Below are positions 24,926-42,545 of a stretch of DNA of 45,980 bases, in pieces (the first letter of the stretch is position 1; each line of letters opens with the position of its first letter). The stretch lies in IMG/VR virus record IMGVR_UViG_2529292882_000016; one strand, 5' to 3'. The position numbers and the translations under genes were made by a program. The notes beneath the pieces are model-generated. The model saw nothing but the letters and a program-made list of their open reading frames with translations. It had not been told where the DNA came from and made no database searches. The DNA is from a virus. Lineage: Duplodnaviria; Heunggongvirae; Uroviricota; Caudoviricetes.

Positions 24926-25309
24926 TCATCGTTTCAACTGAAAGTGAGGTCCGTCTTTCAGTGTTTTCCAGTCCCCGCCCCATTCGATGGCAGTTCCCAG
25001 CTCTGCGGCAGCCTGCTTAAATGCCTGTGCGATTTTCTCGTACAGAGGCCAGTCCCATGACACCTGGCTGCCAATGTAGGCCACAACATCCACCGCATCA
25101 CCGGTCAGGTGGCGGCTGTTCATGGTCTGGCTCTTACCTTCTGCAACCAACTGTTTCTGGCGATACTTACTGCGCAGACCTTCCGTAATACCGAAATCAA
25201 CCTCCGTCAGCTCCAGTGCACGGCGAACGACAGCAACCAGCTGTGGTTTGACGCCCTCCAGATTTTTTTCACTGCGACGGCTGAATCTGAATTTACCCGA
25301 CATATTCAC
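24926..25309 (-). CDS. Endolysin, peptidase M15-type (127 aa)
   Basis: SRHLTGDAVDV (H-x6-D) and C-terminal DGPHFQL motifs typical of zinc D-Ala/L-Ala-D-Glu peptidase endolysins; follows holin-like genes. Confidence 0.75.
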   Translation of the reverse strand: MNMSGKFRFSRRSEKNLEGVKPQLVAVVRRALELTEVDFGITEGLRSKYRQKQLVAEGKSQTMNSRHLTGDAVDVVAYIGSQVSWDWPLYEKIAQAFKQAAAELGTAIEWGGDWKTLKDGPHFQLKR

Positions 25310-25581
25310 CTCAACAATGGAAAGATTTTTGTGACGTTCCCGCGTGCGCGTATCACCAGCACGCAGAACAGCAGGTTAAAAAACACTTCCAGCCAGCCCG
25401 TTGCTAACGGGCGACCACACAGATAGCTGAGGGGCGCAAAGGCATACAGCAGCATCAGCAGCCAGGCCAGCCATGACATCAGCGGTTTATGTCTGGAATC
25501 ACGGCGACGATAAAAAAAGAGCGTCAGCACGATAACCGTGCATAACGCTACATTCAGCAATCCGGGAATGTTACTTAACAT
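25306..25581 (-). CDS. Membrane protein, lysis-associated (start probably at the ATG at 25581)
   Basis: Three hydrophobic segments; between holin-like gene and endolysin. Confidence 0.4.
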   Translation of the reverse strand: MLSNIPGLLNVALCTVIVLTLFFYRRRDSRHKPLMSWLAWLLMLLYAFAPLSYLCGRPLATGWLEVFFNLLFCVLVIRARGNVTKIFPLLR

Positions 25582-25963
25582 TGCCGCCTCCTCCACCCCG
25601 CAGACGGGAGAACAGGCCGGACACCAGCGATGCAATATCCTGCTGGTGGATGAACGAGAGAATCTTCACCGACACCACTGACACCAGTACTGCACACAAT
25701 GCGTCGACAGGTGCACCGTCAAACCCTGTATGCTTTACCAGCCAGGATGCCAGAACCTCTGCCCCCAGCACGCCGATAATGAACGACACCAGAAAATGCG
25801 CCGCCACACGCCAGGCTGAAAGCGCCTGCGGAATTGTTGCCACAAATAACGCCCCGGCGAACGCACCAAACACAATCCCGAAATCCGTTCCGGTAAACAG
25901 CCCGAATACCGTCGCCCCGCCGAGCGCCACAGCCGTGCCGGAACCGGATAAGGGTTCAGACAT
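25571..25963 (-). CDS. Holin-like membrane protein (~130 aa; start at ATG 25963 with AGGAG RBS)
   Basis: Gly/Ala-rich transmembrane helices; first gene of the lysis cassette. The longer ORF to 26188 has no ribosome-binding site. Confidence 0.5.
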   Translation of the reverse strand: MSEPLSGSGTAVALGGATVFGLFTGTDFGIVFGAFAGALFVATIPQALSAWRVAAHFLVSFIIGVLGAEVLASWLVKHTGFDGAPVDALCAVLVSVVSVKILSFIHQQDIASLVSGLFSRLRGGGGGNVK

Positions 25964-26149: not shown

Positions 26150-26192
26150 AAGCTGTGTGGCGAAGTAACCACTCTTAACACGATACAATACT

Positions 26193-26221
26193 TTTTGCGT
26201 ACGCGTTAGTGTTTTAGTAAT
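26193..26221 (+). promoter_or_regulatory. Candidate sigma70 promoter for the cassette: -35 TTGCGT, 17-bp spacer, -10 TAATAT
   Basis: Hexamers read directly from the sequence about 40 bp upstream of the first cassette ATG. Confidence 0.3.
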
Positions 26222-26257
26222 ATCCTGAAGTACGTTTATCTATTGATATCTATAGAA

Positions 26258-27349
26258 ATGAAGAAAATCGAAAAACTGTTCACTGAAGTAATACGGAAGT
26301 TGCGCCATAAGAAATTTATGCGCTCGATAGCTAGTAAAAGAAGCACAACAGAAAGAAAACTAAAACGTAATGGAAGTTTAAAAAAAATCTCTCCAGAAAA
26401 AATACTTGCTCCAACCATACTTGATATTTACAAGGCGGAATATCATGAGAATGTGGTTAATTTTATAGAAAAAATAGAAAACAAAGCAAAAACAGGAAAT
26501 AAAAAGATATATATATGCTTCAGAAATACAATTCACATATCGGCTGCTGCTGGCTTATTTCTTCTTGCAAAACTAGAGACATTAAAAAGCAATCATAAGG
26601 GCTTAAAATATATCGTAGCCAAACCTCCAATTAAAACTTCATCAAAAGGAGAGCAGCACGTTGTTGATTCTGTTTTGAACAGAATCGGTATCTATGCAGC
26701 ATTAGGTGTTAAATCAAGAGAAATGAGAGAAACTCCGTCTGTAAAATGTTGGGAGGTAATTCGTGGCGAACTCGTAGATTCGGAAATTGCGGGGAACTTA
26801 TTAGAAACAATCACAGAAAGAATGGGTACCGATTATACAGATTTATATCGCCCCTTGATAGAAGCCATGTCTAATTCAGTAGAGCATGCATATCGAGACG
26901 ATTTATATGACTCAAATAAAAATAATAATAAAAATAAATGGTGGTGCTTTGCTGCAATTATGAACAACAAGTTAATATTACTAATTTGTGACCTCGGTGT
27001 CGGTATACCTAAAACGTTAAAACTCACTCAAGGTGAAAAGGTTCTTGCAAAACTAACCGAGTTCCTTGGTAAGCCATTAGTCCTTGATTCAGAACATATA
27101 AAAGCCTCATTGCAAGTTAAACGAACCCGAACAAAGCTTGGATACAGAGGGAAAGGAGGAACTGATTTACAATCTATCATAGAAAACTTTGAAAATGCAC
27201 AATTACGGATTATATCCAACAAAGGAAATTACAGATATACTCATCGTAAGAAAGCAAGACCAGAGTTAATGTGGGATGCCAAACATTCCATCAACGGTAC
27301 TATAGTTGAATGGAGCGTACCGCTACCAAATGAAGGAGACCCCCAATGA
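26258..27349 (+). CDS. GHKL-superfamily ATPase/kinase, RsbW/SpoIIAB-like C-terminal domain with ~190-aa N-terminal extension (363 aa from ATG 26258)
   Basis: N-box-like EAMSNSVEHAY, G1 box ICDLGVGIP (DxGxG), G2-like GYRGKGGTDL, with appropriate spacing; AT-rich; stop overlaps next gene's ATG (ATGA). Confidence 0.75.
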   Translation: MKKIEKLFTEVIRKLRHKKFMRSIASKRSTTERKLKRNGSLKKISPEKILAPTILDIYKAEYHENVVNFIEKIENKAKTGNKKIYICFRNTIHISAAAGLFLLAKLETLKSNHKGLKYIVAKPPIKTSSKGEQHVVDSVLNRIGIYAALGVKSREMRETPSVKCWEVIRGELVDSEIAGNLLETITERMGTDYTDLYRPLIEAMSNSVEHAYRDDLYDSNKNNNKNKWWCFAAIMNNKLILLICDLGVGIPKTLKLTQGEKVLAKLTEFLGKPLVLDSEHIKASLQVKRTRTKLGYRGKGGTDLQSIIENFENAQLRIISNKGNYRYTHRKKARPELMWDAKHSINGTIVEWSVPLPNEGDPQ

Positions 27350-27663
27350 AAACCTTATTTATCAAGGACTTTTCAAGATTCCCGGGACCTAGATACGAAA
27401 GGTTAGGTGAAAACAGTGGCGAAAAATTCCGCGATTTATTTTTGATACCAGCACTTAGCAAAGATCCAGACTTAGTCATTGACTTTGATGGTGTTTTTGG
27501 CTATGGCTCATCTTTCCTTGAGGAGGCCTTTGGAGGTTTGGTGCGTAAAGGGATAGAGCGCGAAAAATTGGAGAAGCTTAAGAAGAATCTCAAAAGTAAA
27601 GATCAATACATTATTGAGGAAGTAATTTCATATATAGATGATGCTCTGAGAGAACTAAAATAA
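27346..27663 (+). CDS. STAS-like protein, anti-sigma-factor-antagonist-like / DUF4325-like (105 aa)
   Basis: VIDFDGVFGYGSSFLEEAFGG resembles the SpoIIAA/RsbV loop (DLSGVSFMDSSGLG) including the Ser-Ser; translationally coupled on both sides. Confidence 0.7.
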   Translation: MKTLFIKDFSRFPGPRYERLGENSGEKFRDLFLIPALSKDPDLVIDFDGVFGYGSSFLEEAFGGLVRKGIEREKLEKLKKNLKSKDQYIIEEVISYIDDALRELK

Positions 27664-28124
27664 TGGACACTGACGTTACTCAGAATTTATGGACAATGCC
27701 TGCAACGATTATAGCGATTGCTGGCATTTTTTTAACAATATTAGGCTGGATAGTCACAGCAATATTTACTCGCATTAACAACGCGAAAAATTTAAAAAAA
27801 CTAGAAATAAATAGGCTTATTGATGAGTTATTTTATAAATTAGATTTCATTTATAGCGAAATGCTTGAATTGCTGCGAGACGATAAAAAAGACAAACAAG
27901 TCCTATATTACATTTTTACATCATCAGTAAGGCATGTTGAGTTTATTTGCGAGCGAATTGAGTTATTAGACAACAAGAAAAACAAAGACAATGGATTAAT
28001 ATCTGAATTAAGGCAAGCATGCACTAACGATGCGAAATATGAAAAAGAAAAAATAGGAACAACATTACATGAAATTCAAAGCGCTAATGAAAAACTCAAA
28101 AACAAATATCTAAAATCCTTTTAA
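27663..28124 (+). CDS. Small membrane protein with N-terminal transmembrane segment and helical cytoplasmic region (153 aa)
   Basis: Hydrophobic stretch MPATIIAIAGIFLTILGWIVTAIF then Lys/Glu-rich helices; start overlaps previous stop (TAATG). Confidence 0.65.
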   Translation: MDTDVTQNLWTMPATIIAIAGIFLTILGWIVTAIFTRINNAKNLKKLEINRLIDELFYKLDFIYSEMLELLRDDKKDKQVLYYIFTSSVRHVEFICERIELLDNKKNKDNGLISELRQACTNDAKYEKEKIGTTLHEIQSANEKLKNKYLKSF

Positions 28125-28130
28125 ATAAAA

Positions 28131-28165
28131 AAGGACCGGCGGCTTAGCCGGTTCCTTTTTATTTT
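28131..28165. terminator. Bidirectional rho-independent terminator between the cassette and Q
   Basis: AAAAAGGACCGGCGGCTTAGCCGGTTCCTTTTTATTTT: GC stem flanked by an A-run and a T-run. Confidence 0.7.
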
Positions 28166-28503
28166 ATTACACAAAGGCATCCATCAATAAACCCCATTGC
28201 CGTTTGCATCTCTTTCCGTATTGTTCCATCTGAACATTTCCGTTTTTTAGCAATAGCGCGTAATGAGATACCAATAACAAAGTGAGCAATGATCAACTCA
28301 TACTCTTCGGGTTTATACTTTCGCAACCGAGCCACACAACCGTCTATCATGATACCTTCGTCATCATCACACTGGAGACGTGACTTTTTACCGTGTGGTA
28401 AAAGCCCCTTGAAGCCTGCTGCTATCGGCTGCCAGTCCACACCACTGTTATCTGCTGCAGCCCAGGCCCCCCAACGATCTAAAACTTCGTACATATCACG
28501 CAT
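28159..28503 (-). CDS. Late-gene antiterminator Q, QuuD-like (114 aa from ATG 28503)
   Basis: MRDMYEVLDRWGAWAAADNSGVDWQPIAAGFKGL... and the Cys-rich QCDDDEGIMIDGC closely resemble QuuD-type Q proteins as I recall them; start overlaps upstream stop. Confidence 0.8.
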   Translation of the reverse strand: MRDMYEVLDRWGAWAAADNSGVDWQPIAAGFKGLLPHGKKSRLQCDDDEGIMIDGCVARLRKYKPEEYELIIAHFVIGISLRAIAKKRKCSDGTIRKEMQTAMGFIDGCLCVIK

Positions 28504-28760
28504 CAGCGCAGTACCTCCTGCACCAGTTTTTCGAACTTTCCAACTTTGGTTTCCAGCTCTGCCACACAATCCACCAGCTCATCCACTGCTTTTTGTGCGC
28601 GGTGTTTCGCCTGCATCAGTTCCCTGAGCGCTGGCACCATATCCTTACGAATGGCATCTTTTGTTACGCCTGTCTTTTCCAGTTGTTCCGCCTGTCGTAA
28701 CATTTCCTGTGCCTGTTTACGTAATTGTTCAGGCGTAAAAGTCATGGTCTGGTTGTTCAA
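28503..28760 (-). CDS. Hypothetical protein (85 aa)
   Basis: Helical, between DnaB-like gene and Q; overlapping start/stop junctions. Confidence 0.45.
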   Translation of the reverse strand: MNNQTMTFTPEQLRKQAQEMLRQAEQLEKTGVTKDAIRKDMVPALRELMQAKHRAQKAVDELVDCVAELETKVGKFEKLVQEVLR

Positions 28761-32079: not shown

Positions 32080-32285
32080 GGGCGCACCTCCGCCGTAGTG
32101 ATGTATTTAACCGGACTGCTTTTCATTGCGATGGTTTCACACATCTCCGCTGCTTTACGTTCCGCTGTTTTCCTGGATTTATAGCGGCGGTGCCAGACAG
32201 ATGTATCCGTGCGAACTGATACATCGTTTCTGTATTCCGTTGTAGAAATAATAATTTCGTAACTAATCATGGACGCGCCTCCCAT
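32076..32285 (-). CDS. Hypothetical protein (69 aa)
   Basis: ORF only; start may be the internal ATG at 32270. Confidence 0.35.
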   Translation of the reverse strand: MGGASMISYEIIISTTEYRNDVSVRTDTSVWHRRYKSRKTAERKAAEMCETIAMKSSPVKYITTAEVRP

Positions 32286-32929
32286 TGATTACGGCGGAAA
32301 GCAGTGTGATTCAGGCTGGTTTCAGCCTCATGGAATGCTTCAATACAGCTCTCGTAGTACCGCATTGTGCGCAGACTTAACCCAAGCTGAAGCATCATCA
32401 GGCCATCAAGGGTGATGTAATAACCACGCAGGGAGTCACCATAGATGTGATAAGTGCCCGGTATGAAATTGCGGGTAAAAAAATCGCGCGAGCAGTTCAG
32501 ATACTCGATTTTGTCGACGATGTTCTGGTGCATGCGCTTGAAGTGGCAGGCAACATGCAGGGAGAAAATAACAGCTTTGCCGTTGACGACTTCGATTTTC
32601 AGGTATGGGGAAGTTGGGACTGTAGCCATGATGGCAGCCTCCGTATGCAATGGATAACTTCCACCACCGGAGCTGCGAAACTCATGGGTGGTGAACTGAA
32701 CAGGGTTCGCAGTACCGGCGCATACGGAAACCGGCGAGCCTTTCGGCTCCCCTGCCCAGCCCACCATAATTCTGGCGTGCGCGAGCATGGACGATAAAAA
32801 AGACGCTGGCGCGTCGTATATCGCCGTATGCAATTCCGGGCTGCGACCCCCGGCACCCGCTTTATAAGGTGCAGAGACAGTGTAACGTCCCGAAATTGCA
32901 GAATCAATATTTAGGCTTGAAACATTCAT
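32267..32929 (-). CDS. Hypothetical early protein (220 aa)
   Basis: Long ORF in the early-right operon; no motif recognised. Confidence 0.45.
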   Translation of the reverse strand: MNVSSLNIDSAISGRYTVSAPYKAGAGGRSPELHTAIYDAPASFLSSMLAHARIMVGWAGEPKGSPVSVCAGTANPVQFTTHEFRSSGGGSYPLHTEAAIMATVPTSPYLKIEVVNGKAVIFSLHVACHFKRMHQNIVDKIEYLNCSRDFFTRNFIPGTYHIYGDSLRGYYITLDGLMMLQLGLSLRTMRYYESCIEAFHEAETSLNHTAFRRNQWEARP

Positions 32930-34759: not shown

Positions 34760-34840
34760 CACACTGGATACTCTGTTATCCAAGAATGTTAAACGCGAGA
34801 ACCCAAAGTATCAAGAAATTCTGTTACTTTAGTATCAGCA
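34760..34840. promoter_or_regulatory. Divergent promoter/operator region (OR-like) with repeated GTATC/GATAC half-sites
   Basis: GGATACTCTGTTATCC (34766..34781), AGTATCA at 34807 and 34831, TCTGTTAC at 34822; between the divergently transcribed cro-like and cI-like genes. Confidence 0.4.
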
Positions 34841-34860
34841 GCCATGAAAGGAGAAGAAAA

Positions 34861-35517
34861 ATGAAATCTTTAGGTGAACGCCTCATCAACGCACGACAAA
34901 AAGCTGGGTTAACGCAAGATGCGTTGGCTAAAAAAGCAGGGGTCACCAGAGTTGCAATCAGTAAAGCCGAGCAAGGCCTTACAAAAAGTTTCAACGGTGA
35001 CACCCTTTTTAAAGTCGCAGCTGCACTGCAGTGTTCACCGCAGTGGCTTCAGAACGGAGATGAAAAAGATAAGCATTGGGAAAATAATGTTAAGAGCTGC
35101 CCACAGAGAGACACAGCACACTCTTACCCTGTAATTAACTGGGTTCAGGCAGGATTATTCGCAACTGCTGGTGATGACTACAACATGTATGATCAGGATA
35201 ATTGGAGGCATTCTGTAAAATACGCTGGTGAGAGGGGGTTCTGGCTGGAAGTGCACGGAGACTCAATGACTTCGCCCGTAGGAATAACATTTCCTGAAGG
35301 AATGTCGATCCTTGTCAACCCAGATAAAGAAGTTTTTTCAGGGTGTTACGTCATCGCCAGAAAAAAATCTACCAATGAAGCAACATTCAAAAAATATATT
35401 TCTGAAATGGGAAAGGCGTTTCTAAAGCCCCTTAATCCACAATATCCAATCATAGAAATGGACAATGATTGCGAAATAGTAGGTGTTGTGGTTGATGCCA
35501 GGTGGGATATTTTCTGA
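34861..35517 (+). CDS. cI-type repressor, HTH plus LexA-like S24 peptidase domain (218 aa from ATG 34861)
   Basis: N-terminal HTH (LTQDALAKKAGVTRVAISKAEQG) and C-terminal S24-like region (WLEVHGDSMTSPVGITFPEGM...VIARKK...); AAGGAG RBS. Confidence 0.85.
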   Translation: MKSLGERLINARQKAGLTQDALAKKAGVTRVAISKAEQGLTKSFNGDTLFKVAAALQCSPQWLQNGDEKDKHWENNVKSCPQRDTAHSYPVINWVQAGLFATAGDDYNMYDQDNWRHSVKYAGERGFWLEVHGDSMTSPVGITFPEGMSILVNPDKEVFSGCYVIARKKSTNEATFKKYISEMGKAFLKPLNPQYPIIEMDNDCEIVGVVVDARWDIF

Positions 35518-37757: not shown

Positions 37758-37946
37758 ATGAGACTGTATTTCACAATAGTAATTTTACTGGCAATTATCG
37801 CATGCATTTACGGATTACTCGTTCCGTTCCTTATATCTATGAAGGATACGATAGCAGTTATTTCTGGCTTTGCACTGGCGTTTCTGACCCCGCCCTGCAT
37901 TTATGCCATTTACAAGGGTCTTTCTTTCACTAAGGATAAAAGATGA
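37758..37946 (+). CDS. Small membrane protein (62 aa, two predicted transmembrane segments), coupled to the SPFH gene
   Basis: Hydrophobic sequence MRLYFTIVILLAIIACIYGLLVPFLIS...; stop overlaps the SPFH gene ATG (ATGA). Confidence 0.4.
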   Translation: MRLYFTIVILLAIIACIYGLLVPFLISMKDTIAVISGFALAFLTPPCIYAIYKGLSFTKDKR

Positions 37947-38770
37947 AAAAAATTATTTTTGCTTTAGCCATTGTTCTGCCGACTATTGGCCTTGTCGGTT
38001 GCGATCGCGTTGAACCAGGTAATGTTGGCATCAAGGTAAATAAACTGGGCGACGACAAAGGCGTCGGTGAGGTGGTCGGTGTTGGTCGCTACTGGACTGG
38101 CTGGAATACTGAAGTTTATATCTTCCCCACCTTCAAACAAATGAAGACCTACGATGAACCGTTCAGTTTCCAGATGAGTGACGGTACAACCATCGGCTAT
38201 CACATCGGTGTGGCCTACAAAGTTGATCCATCCAAAGTTACCACGGTGTTTCAGACCTACCGCAAAGGCGTGGATGACATTACCGACACTGACCTGCGCC
38301 AGAAGATCGCCGACGCACTCAACCGACTGGCCAGCAAAATGACCACCGACAAATTTATCGATGGCGGGAAGTCTGAACTACTGGATGCAGCTCTTAAAGA
38401 CATTCAGGAGGAAATGACACCCATCGGTATTCAGGTAATGAGCCTCTCATATGTAGGTAAGCCGGAGTACCCGTCAACCGTTATCGACAGCATTAATGCC
38501 AAAGTCACGGCGAACCAGAAAACACTGCAGCGCGAGCAGGAAGTAAAACAGCGCGAAGCGGAAGCCAATATGTTGCGCGCAGAAGCTGCCGGACAGGCTG
38601 ATGCGATTCGCACAAAAGCCCAGGCCGAAGCTGATGCTATTCGTTTACGCGGTGAAGCTCTGCGCCAGAACCCCGGCGTTATGGAGCTGGAAGCCATCAA
38701 TAAATGGAACGGCACACTGCCGCAATACATGACCAGCGGTGCTAATACACCATTTATCCAGGTTAAATAA
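37943..38770 (+). CDS. SPFH/band-7 (prohibitin/stomatin-like) domain lipoprotein (275 aa)
   Basis: Signal peptide with lipobox LVGC; central SPFH-like region and Ala/Glu-rich coiled-coil tail (EAEANMLRAEAAGQADAIRTKAQAEADAIRLRGEALRQNPGVMELEAINKWNG). Confidence 0.75.
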   Translation: MKKIIFALAIVLPTIGLVGCDRVEPGNVGIKVNKLGDDKGVGEVVGVGRYWTGWNTEVYIFPTFKQMKTYDEPFSFQMSDGTTIGYHIGVAYKVDPSKVTTVFQTYRKGVDDITDTDLRQKIADALNRLASKMTTDKFIDGGKSELLDAALKDIQEEMTPIGIQVMSLSYVGKPEYPSTVIDSINAKVTANQKTLQREQEVKQREAEANMLRAEAAGQADAIRTKAQAEADAIRLRGEALRQNPGVMELEAINKWNGTLPQYMTSGANTPFIQVK

Positions 38771-39602: not shown

Positions 39603-39812
39603 GTGGGGCTGGATTGCGTACCTATATCAACCTACTGCCGCAACGCAGGAGAAACGGTTGATGCCGTTAACAAACGGATACAAAGAGGAATATGGAAAGA
39701 AGGGGTACATGTATTAAAAGTCGACGGAGTTAAAGAACGTTGGGTCGACTTAATGGAGATTACAAAATGGGCAAGAAAGAACAAGGATCACTATCTCTCC
39801 CTAGAGGAGTAA
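39603..39812 (+). CDS. xis: Excisionase-like protein (69 aa; GTG start assumed)
   Basis: Small basic protein immediately upstream of and overlapping int, as in lambda xis-int; winged-helix-like composition. Confidence 0.5.
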   Translation: MGLDCVPISTYCRNAGETVDAVNKRIQRGIWKEGVHVLKVDGVKERWVDLMEITKWARKNKDHYLSLEE

Positions 39813-40939
39813 CTATTCGCCAGCATAAAACTGGTAGCACTCTGGTTATCACTTTTACATATAAAGGGGTTCTGTGTCGGGAGCCCCTCTCCAGAATGGA
39901 AGTAAACGCGCGCGGTGTGAAGTACGCTGAGCGTCTGCTGGGAGAAATAAAAAATCAGATTATCGATGGTACCTTCGAATATGCAAAATACTTCCCCAAC
40001 TCCCAAAAGCTGGAGTTGTTCGGGGGAGTGAAAAAAAACAAAAATATAAAATCTTACCTGGATGAATACCTGATTATCTGCCAGAACCGTAACCTGTCAC
40101 CATCGACAATTAGAGGTTATGAAAAATGCCTGTCGGCGCTGTCAGCATTGCATAAATTTCATGTATCAGAACTGACACCTGCAGTACTAAAAAACTGGAT
40201 CGCCAGCAGAAAAACAAAACTGAAAACTATCCGCAATAATCTTTCATTCTTGCGCAGCGCCATAGATGAAGCGGTGACCGATGGTTTGTTAACAATAAAT
40301 CCTGTCACGCTAGTCAGCGCCAGCCGGTATCACGTATTGGACAACACACCAGGCAGTGATGATTACGAGGTCGATCCTTTTACACCAGCGGAGACGGCAG
40401 CAATCTATGACGCCTGTCATTACCCGGAATGGCGAAATCTGTTTCGCTTTGCCTTTAATACAGGACTGCGCAGCTCAGAATTGTGCGCGTTGCGCTGGAC
40501 GGATATAGACTTTATCGGCAACACCGCGCATGTTCAGACTGCAAGCGTAGTCGGGGTAATCAAAAGCACCAAAACAAAAGCCGGCACCCGCAAAGTGCAA
40601 CTGAACAGCGAAGCGCTGGCGGCTCTTCAGGCACAAAAGCCCTACACGGCGCTAAAGAGCGACTTCATATTCAGCGATCCGAAAACTCGCGCTCCTTGGG
40701 CAAACGCAGATGCGATCCGAAAAAAAGCCTGGGTACCAACCCTTAAAAAAGCTGGTGTACGCTATCGCAATCCGTACCAGACACGCCACACGTTCGCCAC
40801 TCGGCACATTAGCCAGGGCGTTAACCTGTTCTGGCTTGCTGGTCAGATGGGGCATAAAGGACCGGAAATGCTGTTCAGACATTACGGCTCTTACCTTGCA
40901 GAATACGATGGAAAAACGGCGATTTCTGCAACCCCGTAA
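39767..40939 (+). CDS. int: Tyrosine integrase, lambda Int-like (390 aa from ATG 39767)
   Basis: C-terminal catalytic region with RHTFATRHISQG...RHYGSYL (R/H/R/Y-type motifs); transcribed toward the att repeat at 41072. Confidence 0.85.
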   Translation: MGKKEQGSLSLPRGVTIRQHKTGSTLVITFTYKGVLCREPLSRMEVNARGVKYAERLLGEIKNQIIDGTFEYAKYFPNSQKLELFGGVKKNKNIKSYLDEYLIICQNRNLSPSTIRGYEKCLSALSALHKFHVSELTPAVLKNWIASRKTKLKTIRNNLSFLRSAIDEAVTDGLLTINPVTLVSASRYHVLDNTPGSDDYEVDPFTPAETAAIYDACHYPEWRNLFRFAFNTGLRSSELCALRWTDIDFIGNTAHVQTASVVGVIKSTKTKAGTRKVQLNSEALAALQAQKPYTALKSDFIFSDPKTRAPWANADAIRKKAWVPTLKKAGVRYRNPYQTRHTFATRHISQGVNLFWLAGQMGHKGPEMLFRHYGSYLAEYDGKTAISATP

Positions 40940-41303: not shown

Positions 41304-42545
41304 ATGGCAAGACAAACCAAACCTCTATCCGTTAAAGAAATAGAATCAGCCAAACCCAAGGAGGCGGACTACGTTCTCTATGATGGCGATGGCCTTGAGC
41401 TACTCATTAAATCCAGCGGGAGTAAAATCTGGCAGTTTCGCTACATTCGCCCTGTCACCAAGAAACGAGCAAAGAAGAGCATAGGCTCCTACCCGTCAGT
41501 TACCCTTGCCGATGCCAGAAACTACCGTGCAGAGTCCCGCTCACTACTGGCTAAACAGATCGATCCGCAGGAACATCAGCAAGAACAATTGCGCAGTTCG
41601 CTGGAAGCCAAAACCAACACTTTCCAACTCGTAGCTGAACGTTGGTGGAATGTGAAGAAAGCCAGTGTGACAGAGGACTATGCGGAAGATATCTGGCGCT
41701 CTCTTGAAAGAGACGTCTTTCCTGCGATTGGCGACGTTAGCGTTACAGATATTAAAGCTCATACACTGGTTCAGGCCGTACAACCGGTTCAGGCCAGAGG
41801 AGCACTGGAAACTGTTCGTCGCCTGTGCCAACGTATTAATGAGGTCATGATCTATGCCCAGAACACAGGGCTGATTGATGCTGTTCCCAGCGTTAATATC
41901 GGTAAAGCCTTCGAGAAGCCTCAGAAAAAGAACATGCCCAGCATTCGACCGGATCAGCTACCTCAGTTAATGCAGACGATGCGAACAGCCAGCATTAGCC
42001 TTTCCACACGCTGCCTGTTCATGTGGCAACTTCTTACTATTACCCGCCCTGCCGAAGCGGCTGAAGCTCTCTGGGAAGAGGTAGACATAGAAGCGCGAGA
42101 GTGGAAGATTCCTGCAGCACGCATGAAAATGAACCGCGACCATACTGTTCCATTGTCAGATGAAGCAATTGCGATACTAGAGATGATGAAGCCGTTAAGT
42201 GGAAATCGAGAATTTATCTTTCCCAGCCGCATCAAGCCAAACCAGCCGATGAACAGTCAGACCGTAAACGCATCGCTAAAACGCGCAGGTTTTGGTGGGG
42301 TGCTCGTTTCACACGGCCTGCGATCTATCGCCAGTACAGCCCTTAATGAGCAGGGATTTCCACCTGATGTTATTGAGGCTGCACTTGCTCATGTGGATAA
42401 GAATGAGGTTCGTCGTGCGTATAACCGTAGTGATTATCTTGAGCAGCGACGGCCTATGATGCAGTGGTGGGCTGATTTTGTGATGGCTGCAGATCACGGT
42501 AGTATGATTGAAGGAGGGATAAAGGCAATGCGGTTAGTTGGATGA
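41304..42545 (+). CDS. intA: P4-type tyrosine integrase, CP4-57 IntA-like (413 aa)
   Basis: N-terminus MARQTKPLSVKEIESAKPKEADYVLYDGDGLELLIKSSGSKIWQFRY and C-terminus ...HVDKNEVRRAYNRSDYLEQRRPMMQWWADF typical of P4-family integrases; about 200 bp after the ssrA 3' end. Confidence 0.85.
   Translation: MARQTKPLSVKEIESAKPKEADYVLYDGDGLELLIKSSGSKIWQFRYIRPVTKKRAKKSIGSYPSVTLADARNYRAESRSLLAKQIDPQEHQQEQLRSSLEAKTNTFQLVAERWWNVKKASVTEDYAEDIWRSLERDVFPAIGDVSVTDIKAHTLVQAVQPVQARGALETVRRLCQRINEVMIYAQNTGLIDAVPSVNIGKAFEKPQKKNMPSIRPDQLPQLMQTMRTASISLSTRCLFMWQLLTITRPAEAAEALWEEVDIEAREWKIPAARMKMNRDHTVPLSDEAIAILEMMKPLSGNREFIFPSRIKPNQPMNSQTVNASLKRAGFGGVLVSHGLRSIASTALNEQGFPPDVIEAALAHVDKNEVRRAYNRSDYLEQRRPMMQWWADFVMAADHGSMIEGGIKAMRLVG

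Follow-up and report, generated by a model that had tools for sequence, protein, structure and literature searches.

What is the function of a small membrane protein that is encoded by a temperate phage together with a kinase-like and a STAS-like protein? The question is raised by a three-gene cassette in IMG/VR record IMGVR_UViG_2529292882_000016, a stretch of 45,980 nucleotides from a virus of the Caudoviricetes, which is called the window here at its full length. The third gene, gene 3, encodes the membrane protein, and genes 1 and 2 in front of it encode the kinase-like and the STAS-like protein, respectively. By analogy to VapKSC, a system in which phosphorylation of a STAS antitoxin frees a nuclease toxin, the trio probably represents a variant of that system that acts on the membrane and has not been described before, and the chances are about even that gene 3 is the membrane-acting toxin of such a module for abortive infection. 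The features of the cassette are the following:

26258-27349, plus strand: gene 1, 363-amino-acid GHKL (SpoIIAB/RsbW-like) Ser-kinase-like protein, recognized by invariant GHKL motifs and predicted fold
27346-27663, plus strand: gene 2, 105-amino-acid STAS-like DUF4325 protein (VapS-like), Pfam PF14213
27663-28124, plus strand: gene 3, 153-amino-acid candidate toxin/effector with an ATG start, predicted single-pass inner-membrane protein
27690-27770, plus strand: predicted transmembrane helix, residues 10-36 of gene 3, from hydropathy and a conserved small-residue stripe with a G28-W29 motif
28023-28025, plus strand: Thr121 codon of gene 3 in the motif L116-R117-x-x-x-T121-x-D123, 97% Thr plus 2% Ser

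The membrane protein and its two partner genes

A preliminary description of this DNA had proposed a protein with one long N-terminal hydrophobic segment or, alternatively, a tight helical hairpin, followed by a charged helical region and translationally coupled to the STAS-like gene. The open reading frame (ORF) of 153 codons is present exactly as given there. The hydrophobic segment is a single stretch of approximately residues 10-36, and the 19-residue Kyte-Doolittle mean reaches its only maximum, 2.55, at residues 16-34. The AlphaFold2 (AF2) model calculated from a 34-sequence alignment (mean predicted local distance difference test, pLDDT, of 82; predicted template-modelling score, pTM, of 0.65) contains a continuous helix of residues 7-72, then helices 78-102, 110-126, and 128-148. 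The hairpin was rejected on the basis of the single 27-residue segment and the unbroken first helix of the model. According to the model, gene 3 is a single membrane span that runs into a cytoplasmic four-helix bundle; the latter is the charged region of the preliminary description, rich in Lys, Leu, and Glu (14.5% K, 13.7% L, and 10.3% E in the soluble part). The coupling was also borne out: the TAA stop codon of gene 2 (27661-27663) shares one base with the ATG of gene 3 in the sequence TAATG.

The positive-inside rule states that the basic flank of a membrane helix sits on the cytoplasmic side. The first 11 residues of gene 3 have a net charge of −2 and the 19 residues past the helix one of +2. 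All conservation figures for gene 3 refer to 191 diverged family members with less than 70% identity unless the 34-sequence alignment is stated. Lys or Arg was found in 47-69% of them at the positions directly past the helix, and acidic residues inside the helix in none. Read with the positive-inside rule, this charge distribution predicts an N-out/C-in topology with a short N terminus of about 9 residues outside and a C-terminal part of about 115 residues in the cytoplasm.

Homologues of gene 3 with 16-98% identity occur in Enterobacterales, Vibrio, Pseudomonas, and Marinomonas. A word-indexed search retrieved 15 close clusters and a profile search 40. An exhaustive hidden Markov model (HMM) search of 1.84 billion proteins yielded 245 cluster representatives with an expectation value (E) of ≤1e-3, 51 of them at ≤1e-10, nearly all with a length of 135-170 amino acids and a profile match that spanned the full length. 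From the diverged homologues and these 245 representatives, it follows at the sequence level that gene 3 is a real gene and not a chance ORF. The family has no Pfam or PADLOC model, and comparison of gene 3 with Pfam, NCBIfam, and PADLOC returned sub-threshold noise only. The closest structural neighbours of the four-helix bundle include QseE, ligand-binding domains of chemoreceptors, HPt, and CheA P1, none of them significant.

The most conserved residue of gene 3 is T121 (97% T and 2% S), which is invariant in the 34-sequence alignment. This residue is located in the predicted cytoplasmic bundle of a protein that shares its operon with a Ser/Thr-kinase-like gene and could serve as an additional phospho-acceptor, cap a helix, or be part of an interface. 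Next in conservation are two residues of the membrane helix, W29 (89%) and G28 (85%), and T25, G28, and W29 are all invariant in the 34-sequence alignment. Small residues (G, A, S, or T) were found with fractions of 0.59, 0.63, 0.92, and 0.59 at positions 14, 18, 21, and 25, and of 0.96, 0.39, and 0.75 at positions 28, (32), and 36, respectively. As judged from this heptad-like spacing, the small-residue positions fall on one face of the helix. Stripes of the glycine-zipper or small-xxx-small type are a typical feature of tight helix-helix packing. The G28-W29 motif together with the family-wide stripe therefore suggests oligomerization, and a role as a mere passive anchor is unlikely for this helix.

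In the neighbourhoods inspected via gene 1, 2, or 3, the genes had the same order and abutted or overlapped, as genes 1 and 2 do here with the sequence ATGA, and no fourth conserved gene was present in the trio neighbourhoods inspected. A local HMM scan recognized all three genes in order in 24 fetched loci and in the window. For L018-L022, the five most distant loci, genes 1 and 2 were recognized, and the third gene remained below the profile threshold. A small transmembrane-plus-helical third ORF was nevertheless visible in L018, L020, L021, and L022, and L019 was without a gene 3 call. The third proteins of L020 and L021 have the same architecture and a T-x-D-like motif, with hhalign E values of 0.03-0.04 that are not significant. 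The only fetched locus without any match in the trio scan was L023, the vapKSC locus of Rahnella. With regard to the gut-metagenome lineage, the third gene encodes 150 amino acids in L020 (5384-5836) and 125 in L018 (5384-5761) and is uncalled in L019, all with intact genes 1 and 2.

IMG/VR was scanned with the single gene 3 protein and with gene 2 as queries. A gene 2 relative is encoded by 187 contigs, and 80 of these were fetched. Gene 1 was located upstream in 76 of the 80, the remaining 4 being cut by contig ends. The abutting downstream ORF of 139-194 amino acids was profile-positive for gene 3 in 68 contigs and carried an N-terminal hydrophobic stretch in 73. Gene 3 is a dedicated partner of genes 1 and 2.

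This partnership is maintained in different genomic contexts. The trio is positioned between Q and holin genes in lambdoid prophages of Klebsiella, Escherichia coli, and metagenomic origin, between the CI repressor and integrase genes in P2/186-like prophages of Citrobacter and Serratia, and after an S24 repressor gene in a Pseudomonas prophage. It adjoins genes for an AAA_16 protein and Csy4 in a defence island of Vibrio cholerae, and locus L032 is a chromosomal trio outside prophages. Gut-metagenome and other prophage loci carry it with kinase identities of 23-28%, and it is also kept around three remote gene 3 relatives (P0150, P0194, and P0202). The cassette was found in 6 of 5,426 complete E. 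coli genomes, with 96.5% identity; E. coli PSUO2 has it as ACJ74_RS23400 to ACJ74_RS23410 in a different prophage with different lysis genes, again adjoining the same type of Q. A tblastn search with gene 3 of 50,697 GenBank phage records found nothing. The only isolated carrier found by a gene 1 search among these records was Marinobacter phage AS1 (MK088078; L115, 3468-5394), where the trio is AS1_41 to AS1_39, after a repressor-like gene and divergent from cro. The cassette is downstream of and co-directional with the repressor genes in the P2/186-like, Pseudomonas, and other prophages and in phage AS1.

The kinase/STAS pair and its relationship to VapKSC

The VapKSC system consists of the kinase VapK with a STAS and a GHKL domain, the STAS antitoxin VapS with a short C-terminal helix, and the PIN nuclease toxin VapC, which is freed when the kinase phosphorylates VapS (Chambers et al., EMBO J 2026, PMC13373217). 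The phosphomimetic S48E exchange abolishes the antitoxin function of VapS, and the vapKSC operon gives about 2-log protection against phage (PMC13373217). VapK itself is the predicted sensor, with a predicted groove for single-stranded DNA (ssDNA) between its N-terminal STAS and GHKL domains (VapK F54/CapK W68), and CapK is a GHKL kinase that is activated by ssDNA and phosphorylates the STAS-domain repressor CapS (PMC13373217). In that study, vapKSC operons were searched for with a vapC hit as a requirement, and a membrane-protein variant is unmentioned (PMC13373217). Because of this requirement, a kinase/DUF4325/membrane trio was outside that search. For the comparison, sequences of a vapKSC locus recovered from Rahnella bruchi were used.

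Gene 2 matches Pfam PF14213 (E = 2.1e-14, 53 bits at a cutoff of 23), and Rahnella VapS is a member of the same Pfam family (E = 2.5e-17, 63 bits). The gene 2 profile aligns with Rahnella VapS in hhalign over 87 columns (E = 0.0025), which places S55 on VapS S48. In a profile search of the PDB, the entry "Escherichia VapS" (9z7o) ranks second with a weak E value of 0.24; a PDB search with gene 2 also gave a weak STAS match, 3t6o, in which the serine of gene 2 is aligned with the canonical site. Gene 2 has the pair Ser55-Ser56 where the phospho-acceptor is canonically located, and its C-terminal tail is helical. All of 10 gene 2 homologues have S56, and 9 of them have S55; both serines are found in L030, L032, and L034, and the distant locus L021 has P-S there. 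These counts are limited to loci recovered through gene 1 or 3. The scan for viral gene 2 relatives was baited with the motif GSSFLE, so that serine conservation in the 80 scanned viral loci is circular. A side observation concerns the PHROGs family phrog_5816, which has 441 positions, of which gene 2 matches only positions 342-439. This partial match suggests that some phages carry DUF4325 fused to the C terminus of a larger protein, possibly as a kinase-STAS fusion.

The ORF of gene 1 can be extended to a TTG at 26243, and the ATG at 26258 agrees with the RefSeq annotation of the E. coli copy. The GHKL motifs are invariant in 45 homologues of gene 1: the N box with E207, N211, H215, and A216, the G1 box D250-x-G252-x-G254-I255, and R302-G303-K304-G305. 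The AF2 model (pLDDT 86) has a C-terminal GHKL ATP-binding domain, and Foldseek matched it in the PDB to CheA P4 and SpoIIAB with template-modelling scores (TM-scores) of 0.57-0.64 on the target. Gene 1 reached no family threshold in Pfam or NCBIfam, including that of Pfam HATPase_c_2; a weak RsbW match in NCBIfam had an E value of 0.023, one gene 1 homologue carries PF13581, and a direct PDB search with gene 1 gave only spurious NreA matches. The label "kinase" is thus derived from the invariant GHKL motifs and the similarity of the predicted fold to SpoIIAB. Because all ATP-binding motifs are invariant and the fold resembles those of SpoIIAB and CheA P4, gene 1 is probably an active kinase.

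Upstream of the GHKL domain, the AF2 model contains an alpha/beta domain at about residues 50-175 in the numbering of the longer ORF, with a beta-alpha-beta-alpha-beta order as in STAS domains. This N-domain alone had no significant match to DUF4325 in hhalign or to STAS chains of the PDB in a profile search, and its alignment with the N-domain of VapK was not significant (hhalign E = 0.47); the label STAS is taken solely from the predicted topology, and no position of gene 1 could be matched to VapK F54. The complete gene 1 profile aligns with Rahnella VapK over 269 collinear columns with 20% identity (hhalign E = 1.2e-4). Since the N-domain shows no significant similarity, this match is carried by the GHKL domain. 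An hmmsearch with the gene 1 profile did not reach VapK at E ≤ 1e-3. The N terminus of gene 1 (26258-26400 of the window) is a basic helical tail with 17 Lys or Arg and 3 Asp or Glu in the first 45 residues, which is common to most relatives (for instance L030 and L032) and absent from VapK and from the shortest relative, L034. As judged from its composition, the tail may bind nucleic acid or the membrane.

The trio and vapKSC agree in several respects. Both are three-gene operons with the same gene order, starting with a gene for a GHKL kinase-like protein with an N-terminal alpha/beta domain. The second gene encodes a DUF4325 STAS protein of about 105-116 amino acids that has a conserved Ser where helix 2 starts and ends in a helical tail, the third gene (vapC in Rahnella, gene 3 here) begins on the last base of the STAS gene, and both cassettes are located near defence genes and on mobile elements. 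They differ in that gene 1 is about 65 residues longer than VapK and has a basic N-terminal tail, and in the third protein, for which a single membrane span and a four-helix bundle are predicted here and which is not related to PIN/VapC. A VapC-like PIN toxin was considered for gene 3 and discarded: hhalign of the gene 3 profile with Rahnella VapC gave an E value of 0.23 over 15 columns, a Pfam PIN hit was not obtained, and the predicted fold is different.

With CapK/CapS, the trio shares the kinase and STAS logic and the conserved phospho-serine (predicted to be Ser55/56 in gene 2). However, CapK has an N-terminal helix-turn-helix (HTH) domain and CapS is a DNA-binding repressor with a winged HTH, whereas gene 2 has no DNA-binding domain, and Q, an integrase gene, or unrelated genes are located downstream of the cassette instead of an immune operon. 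Similarly, the pairs SpoIIAB/SpoIIAA and RsbW/RsbV consist of a Ser kinase with the GHKL fold and a STAS substrate with a Ser at the canonical site, but the third partner in the cassette is a membrane protein; a sigma factor target or PP2C phosphatase is neither present in the cassette nor conserved in the listed neighbourhoods. None of the three proteins had a match in PADLOC-DB 2.0 at E ≤ 1. In PHROGs they match families of unknown function only (phrog_3364, phrog_5816, and phrog_34309), and no description of a kinase/DUF4325/membrane-protein trio was found in the literature searched.

Function of the third gene

The preliminary description had also proposed that the membrane protein is an effector gated by the kinase/STAS pair. 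The order of the trio, the homology of gene 2 to VapS, the position of gene 3 in the slot of vapC, the stripe on its helix, and the genomic context make this the best-supported reading; the anatomy of the protein stands, and effector activity and gating are proposed by analogy. Gene 3 is the candidate for the toxin because the regulatory pair is homologous to VapK/VapS and gene 3 occupies the slot of VapC. No component of the trio has another plausible killing activity, and the trio is placed in a defence island and at moron sites that are expressed in lysogens.

For the steps of binding, phosphorylation, toxicity, and defence, we infer the following course by analogy. In the resting lysogen, translational coupling would fix the ratio in which the products of genes 2 and 3 are made, and the STAS protein would bind the cytoplasmic four-helix bundle of gene 3 and hold it inactive. 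A cue from infection would activate the GHKL kinase; this cue may be ssDNA or another nucleic acid, since the Arg/Lys-rich tail of gene 1 fits such binding and CapK and VapK provide the precedent. The kinase would phosphorylate Ser55 (or Ser56) of gene 2, which would release gene 3. The freed membrane proteins would self-associate via the small-residue/GW face of their helices, and the assemblies would compromise the inner membrane by depolarization or leakage. The infected cell would be stopped before phage progeny is made, which is abortive infection.

Systems of abortive infection with a membrane effector are known from prophages. In phage lambda, rexAB is prophage-borne and located beside cI, and RexB has four transmembrane helices. 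The cassette resembles RexAB and similar systems in being prophage-borne and often positioned directly after a repressor gene, and in the combination of a putative cytoplasmic sensor with an inner-membrane protein, so that membrane depolarization would be expected by analogy. A relationship in sequence or fold does not exist, however, and RexAB has no kinase or STAS step.

Several points weigh against a membrane-acting toxin. The trio is known from its genes alone, and gene 3 resembles no known toxin. For a simple pore-former, the cytoplasmic domain that is predicted to be folded is large, and the hydrophobicity of some relatives is only moderate. Moreover, SOS induction of the host prophage would likewise set off a trigger that responds to DNA damage.

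Given these points, gene 3 might not be the killer but a sensor, anchor, or scaffold that tethers or regulates the kinase/STAS pair at the inner membrane. As a sensor, it would perceive entry of phage DNA or a perturbation of the envelope. The kinase would provide the output by phosphorylating other targets of the phage or the host. The lack of similarity to any toxin agrees with such a role, as does the presence of sensor and phosphotransfer bundles (QseE, HPt, and CheA P1) among the structural neighbours, albeit none at significance. The most conserved residues of gene 3 are cytoplasmic (T121 with 97%, R117, E48, and D54), which fits a protein-protein interface or a phospho-site. On the other hand, kinases of the GHKL anti-sigma type such as SpoIIAB and RsbW are narrow and specific for STAS proteins, so that a broad effector role of gene 1 is unlikely. 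In VapKSC, the kinase is the predicted sensor and the third gene encodes the toxin. The small-residue stripe would be needless for a mere anchor, and no other gene for an effector is conserved nearby in the inspected neighbourhoods. A sensor or scaffold is therefore considered unlikely, without being far-fetched.

A somewhat smaller chance is given to gene 3 as a second substrate or switch element of the kinase, and not just a toxin restrained by the STAS antitoxin. T121 would be phosphorylated, or would read out the phosphorylated STAS protein, in a membrane-anchored three-way partner switch. If this were true, a nucleic-acid cue in the cytoplasm would be converted into the assembly of a pore from single helices, which would be a new class of abortive-infection effector. 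The trio is located just upstream of the holin genes in lambdoid prophages, and such a switch could also set off holin triggering there.

Superinfection exclusion is a doubtful explanation. In this case, gene 3 would prevent the genome of an incoming phage from entering, or would stop infection at an early step at the membrane, and the cell would survive; the kinase/STAS pair would adjust this activity. The prophage exclusion genes sieB, sim, and those of the HK97 gp15 type are found at comparable sites, and the trio likewise encodes a small inner-membrane protein and is carried by prophages at lysogen-expressed sites beside repressor genes. To our knowledge, however, the known exclusion proteins act alone, with no need for an ATP-dependent kinase and a phospho-switch. 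The trio is also found outside prophages, in the Vibrio island and at the chromosomal locus L032. Finally, the bulk of gene 3 is predicted to be cytoplasmic, and about 9 residues outside are poorly suited to meet an incoming tail or DNA channel.

Just as doubtful is a kinase-controlled toxin-antitoxin, addiction, or stress module that mainly stabilizes the prophage or answers DNA damage and has no dedicated anti-phage role. The architecture of such a module would be identical to that of a defence system with a membrane toxin. Truncation of gene 3 in L018 and its absence from L019, with intact genes 1 and 2, fit a costly third gene. The authors of the VapKSC study stress that modules of this type may be general stress responses (PMC13373217). 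The VapKSC system nevertheless protects against a phage (PMC13373217), and the enrichment of the trio on temperate phages (187 IMG/VR contigs) and its position beside defence genes in Vibrio are the pattern of a defence system.

Setting in the prophage and significance

The cassette is a low-GC island of three co-directional genes, with 31-39% GC compared to about 52% in the flanks, in a lambdoid prophage that is integrated at ssrA. The following features surround it:

698-1060: transfer-messenger RNA gene (ssrA, tag ANDENYALAA) at the left end, then prophage tail-fibre genes
24926-25309: M15 peptidase endolysin gene after the holin genes (Pfam)
25306-25963, minus strand: two holin-family genes, Phage_holin_8 and Phage_holin_3_7 (Pfam)
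26150-26127, 26118-26097, and 26004-25989, minus strand: three terminator-like hairpins between the conserved block and the holin genes (terminator scan)
26165-26223, minus strand: conserved block upstream of gene 1, putative late promoter PR'/qut (upstream comparison)
28133-28154, both strands: bidirectional intrinsic-terminator-like hairpin with T-run flanks between gene 3 and Q
28159-28569, minus strand: gene for antitermination protein Q, convergent with gene 3 (Pfam PF06530, E = 2.6e-47)

Five different lambdoid prophages have the block of about 60 bp at 26165-26223 in conserved form, and it is partly conserved in SfII and Stx2 phages, which have the first 74 bases of the query in common with it. 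The block is probably the late promoter PR'/qut, and the hairpins tR', of this type of Q, as far as can be told from sequence comparison. If the block is the late promoter, the cassette is located between Q and PR' and would not be crossed by late transcription. A scan for sigma-70 promoters in front of gene 1 revealed none that was convincing.

An i-spanin has an N-in/C-out topology with a periplasmic coiled coil and is co-transcribed with the late lysis genes. An accessory function of gene 3 in the lysis cassette, as antiholin, holin trigger, or spanin-like protein, is highly improbable and was rejected: gene 3 adjoins the two holin genes and the endolysin gene and has the length and helicity of an i-spanin (Rz-like), but it is on the strand opposite to the late operon, apparently upstream of the putative late promoter, its predicted N-out/C-in topology is opposite to that of an i-spanin, and the trio is also found in non-phage loci and, in other prophages including P2-like ones, beside repressor and integrase genes.

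Three other regions of the window deserve mention. The minus strand at 32684-32872 contains a C4 antisense RNA (Rfam, 83 bits) beside the Hfq-binding small RNA isrK (57 bits). This pair, which lies within or adjoins an ORF of the Ash/Rha family (32267-32929), constitutes an antirepressor control element of the P1/P7 type within a lambdoid prophage. A gene for an SPFH/Band 7 protein (37943-38770, Pfam E = 1.8e-30) with moderately low GC and no PADLOC match is positioned between the gene for a CI-like S24 repressor (34786-35517) and the integrase gene. Beyond the integrase gene of the prophage (39740-40939), a second one is located at 41304-42545, and an ORF of 767 codons on the minus strand (42684-44987) with a GC content of 34-40% and no Pfam or PADLOC match may be the cargo of a separate small island.

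Gating by a kinase/STAS pair has been known since 2026, and its pairing with a dedicated single-pass membrane protein appears to be undescribed. If gene 3 is a membrane toxin, the kinase and the STAS phospho-switch would be a general gating module that controls nuclease and membrane toxins alike, and the trio would be a compact and testable example of a soluble phospho-switch controlling a single-pass membrane effector. It would also be a sizeable unannotated defence system, with 245 diverged representatives of gene 3 and at least 187 viral contigs, which is carried by prophages of E. coli, Klebsiella, Salmonella, Serratia, Vibrio, and Pseudomonas. Three protein families that have no Pfam or PADLOC model, or merely a DUF label, could then be named. 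Marinobacter phage AS1, with its rexAB-like placement of the trio next to a repressor-like gene, is a ready experimental system. For the biology of the prophage, this would raise the question of how it can harbour a module with relatives that respond to DNA damage and yet spare its own induction.

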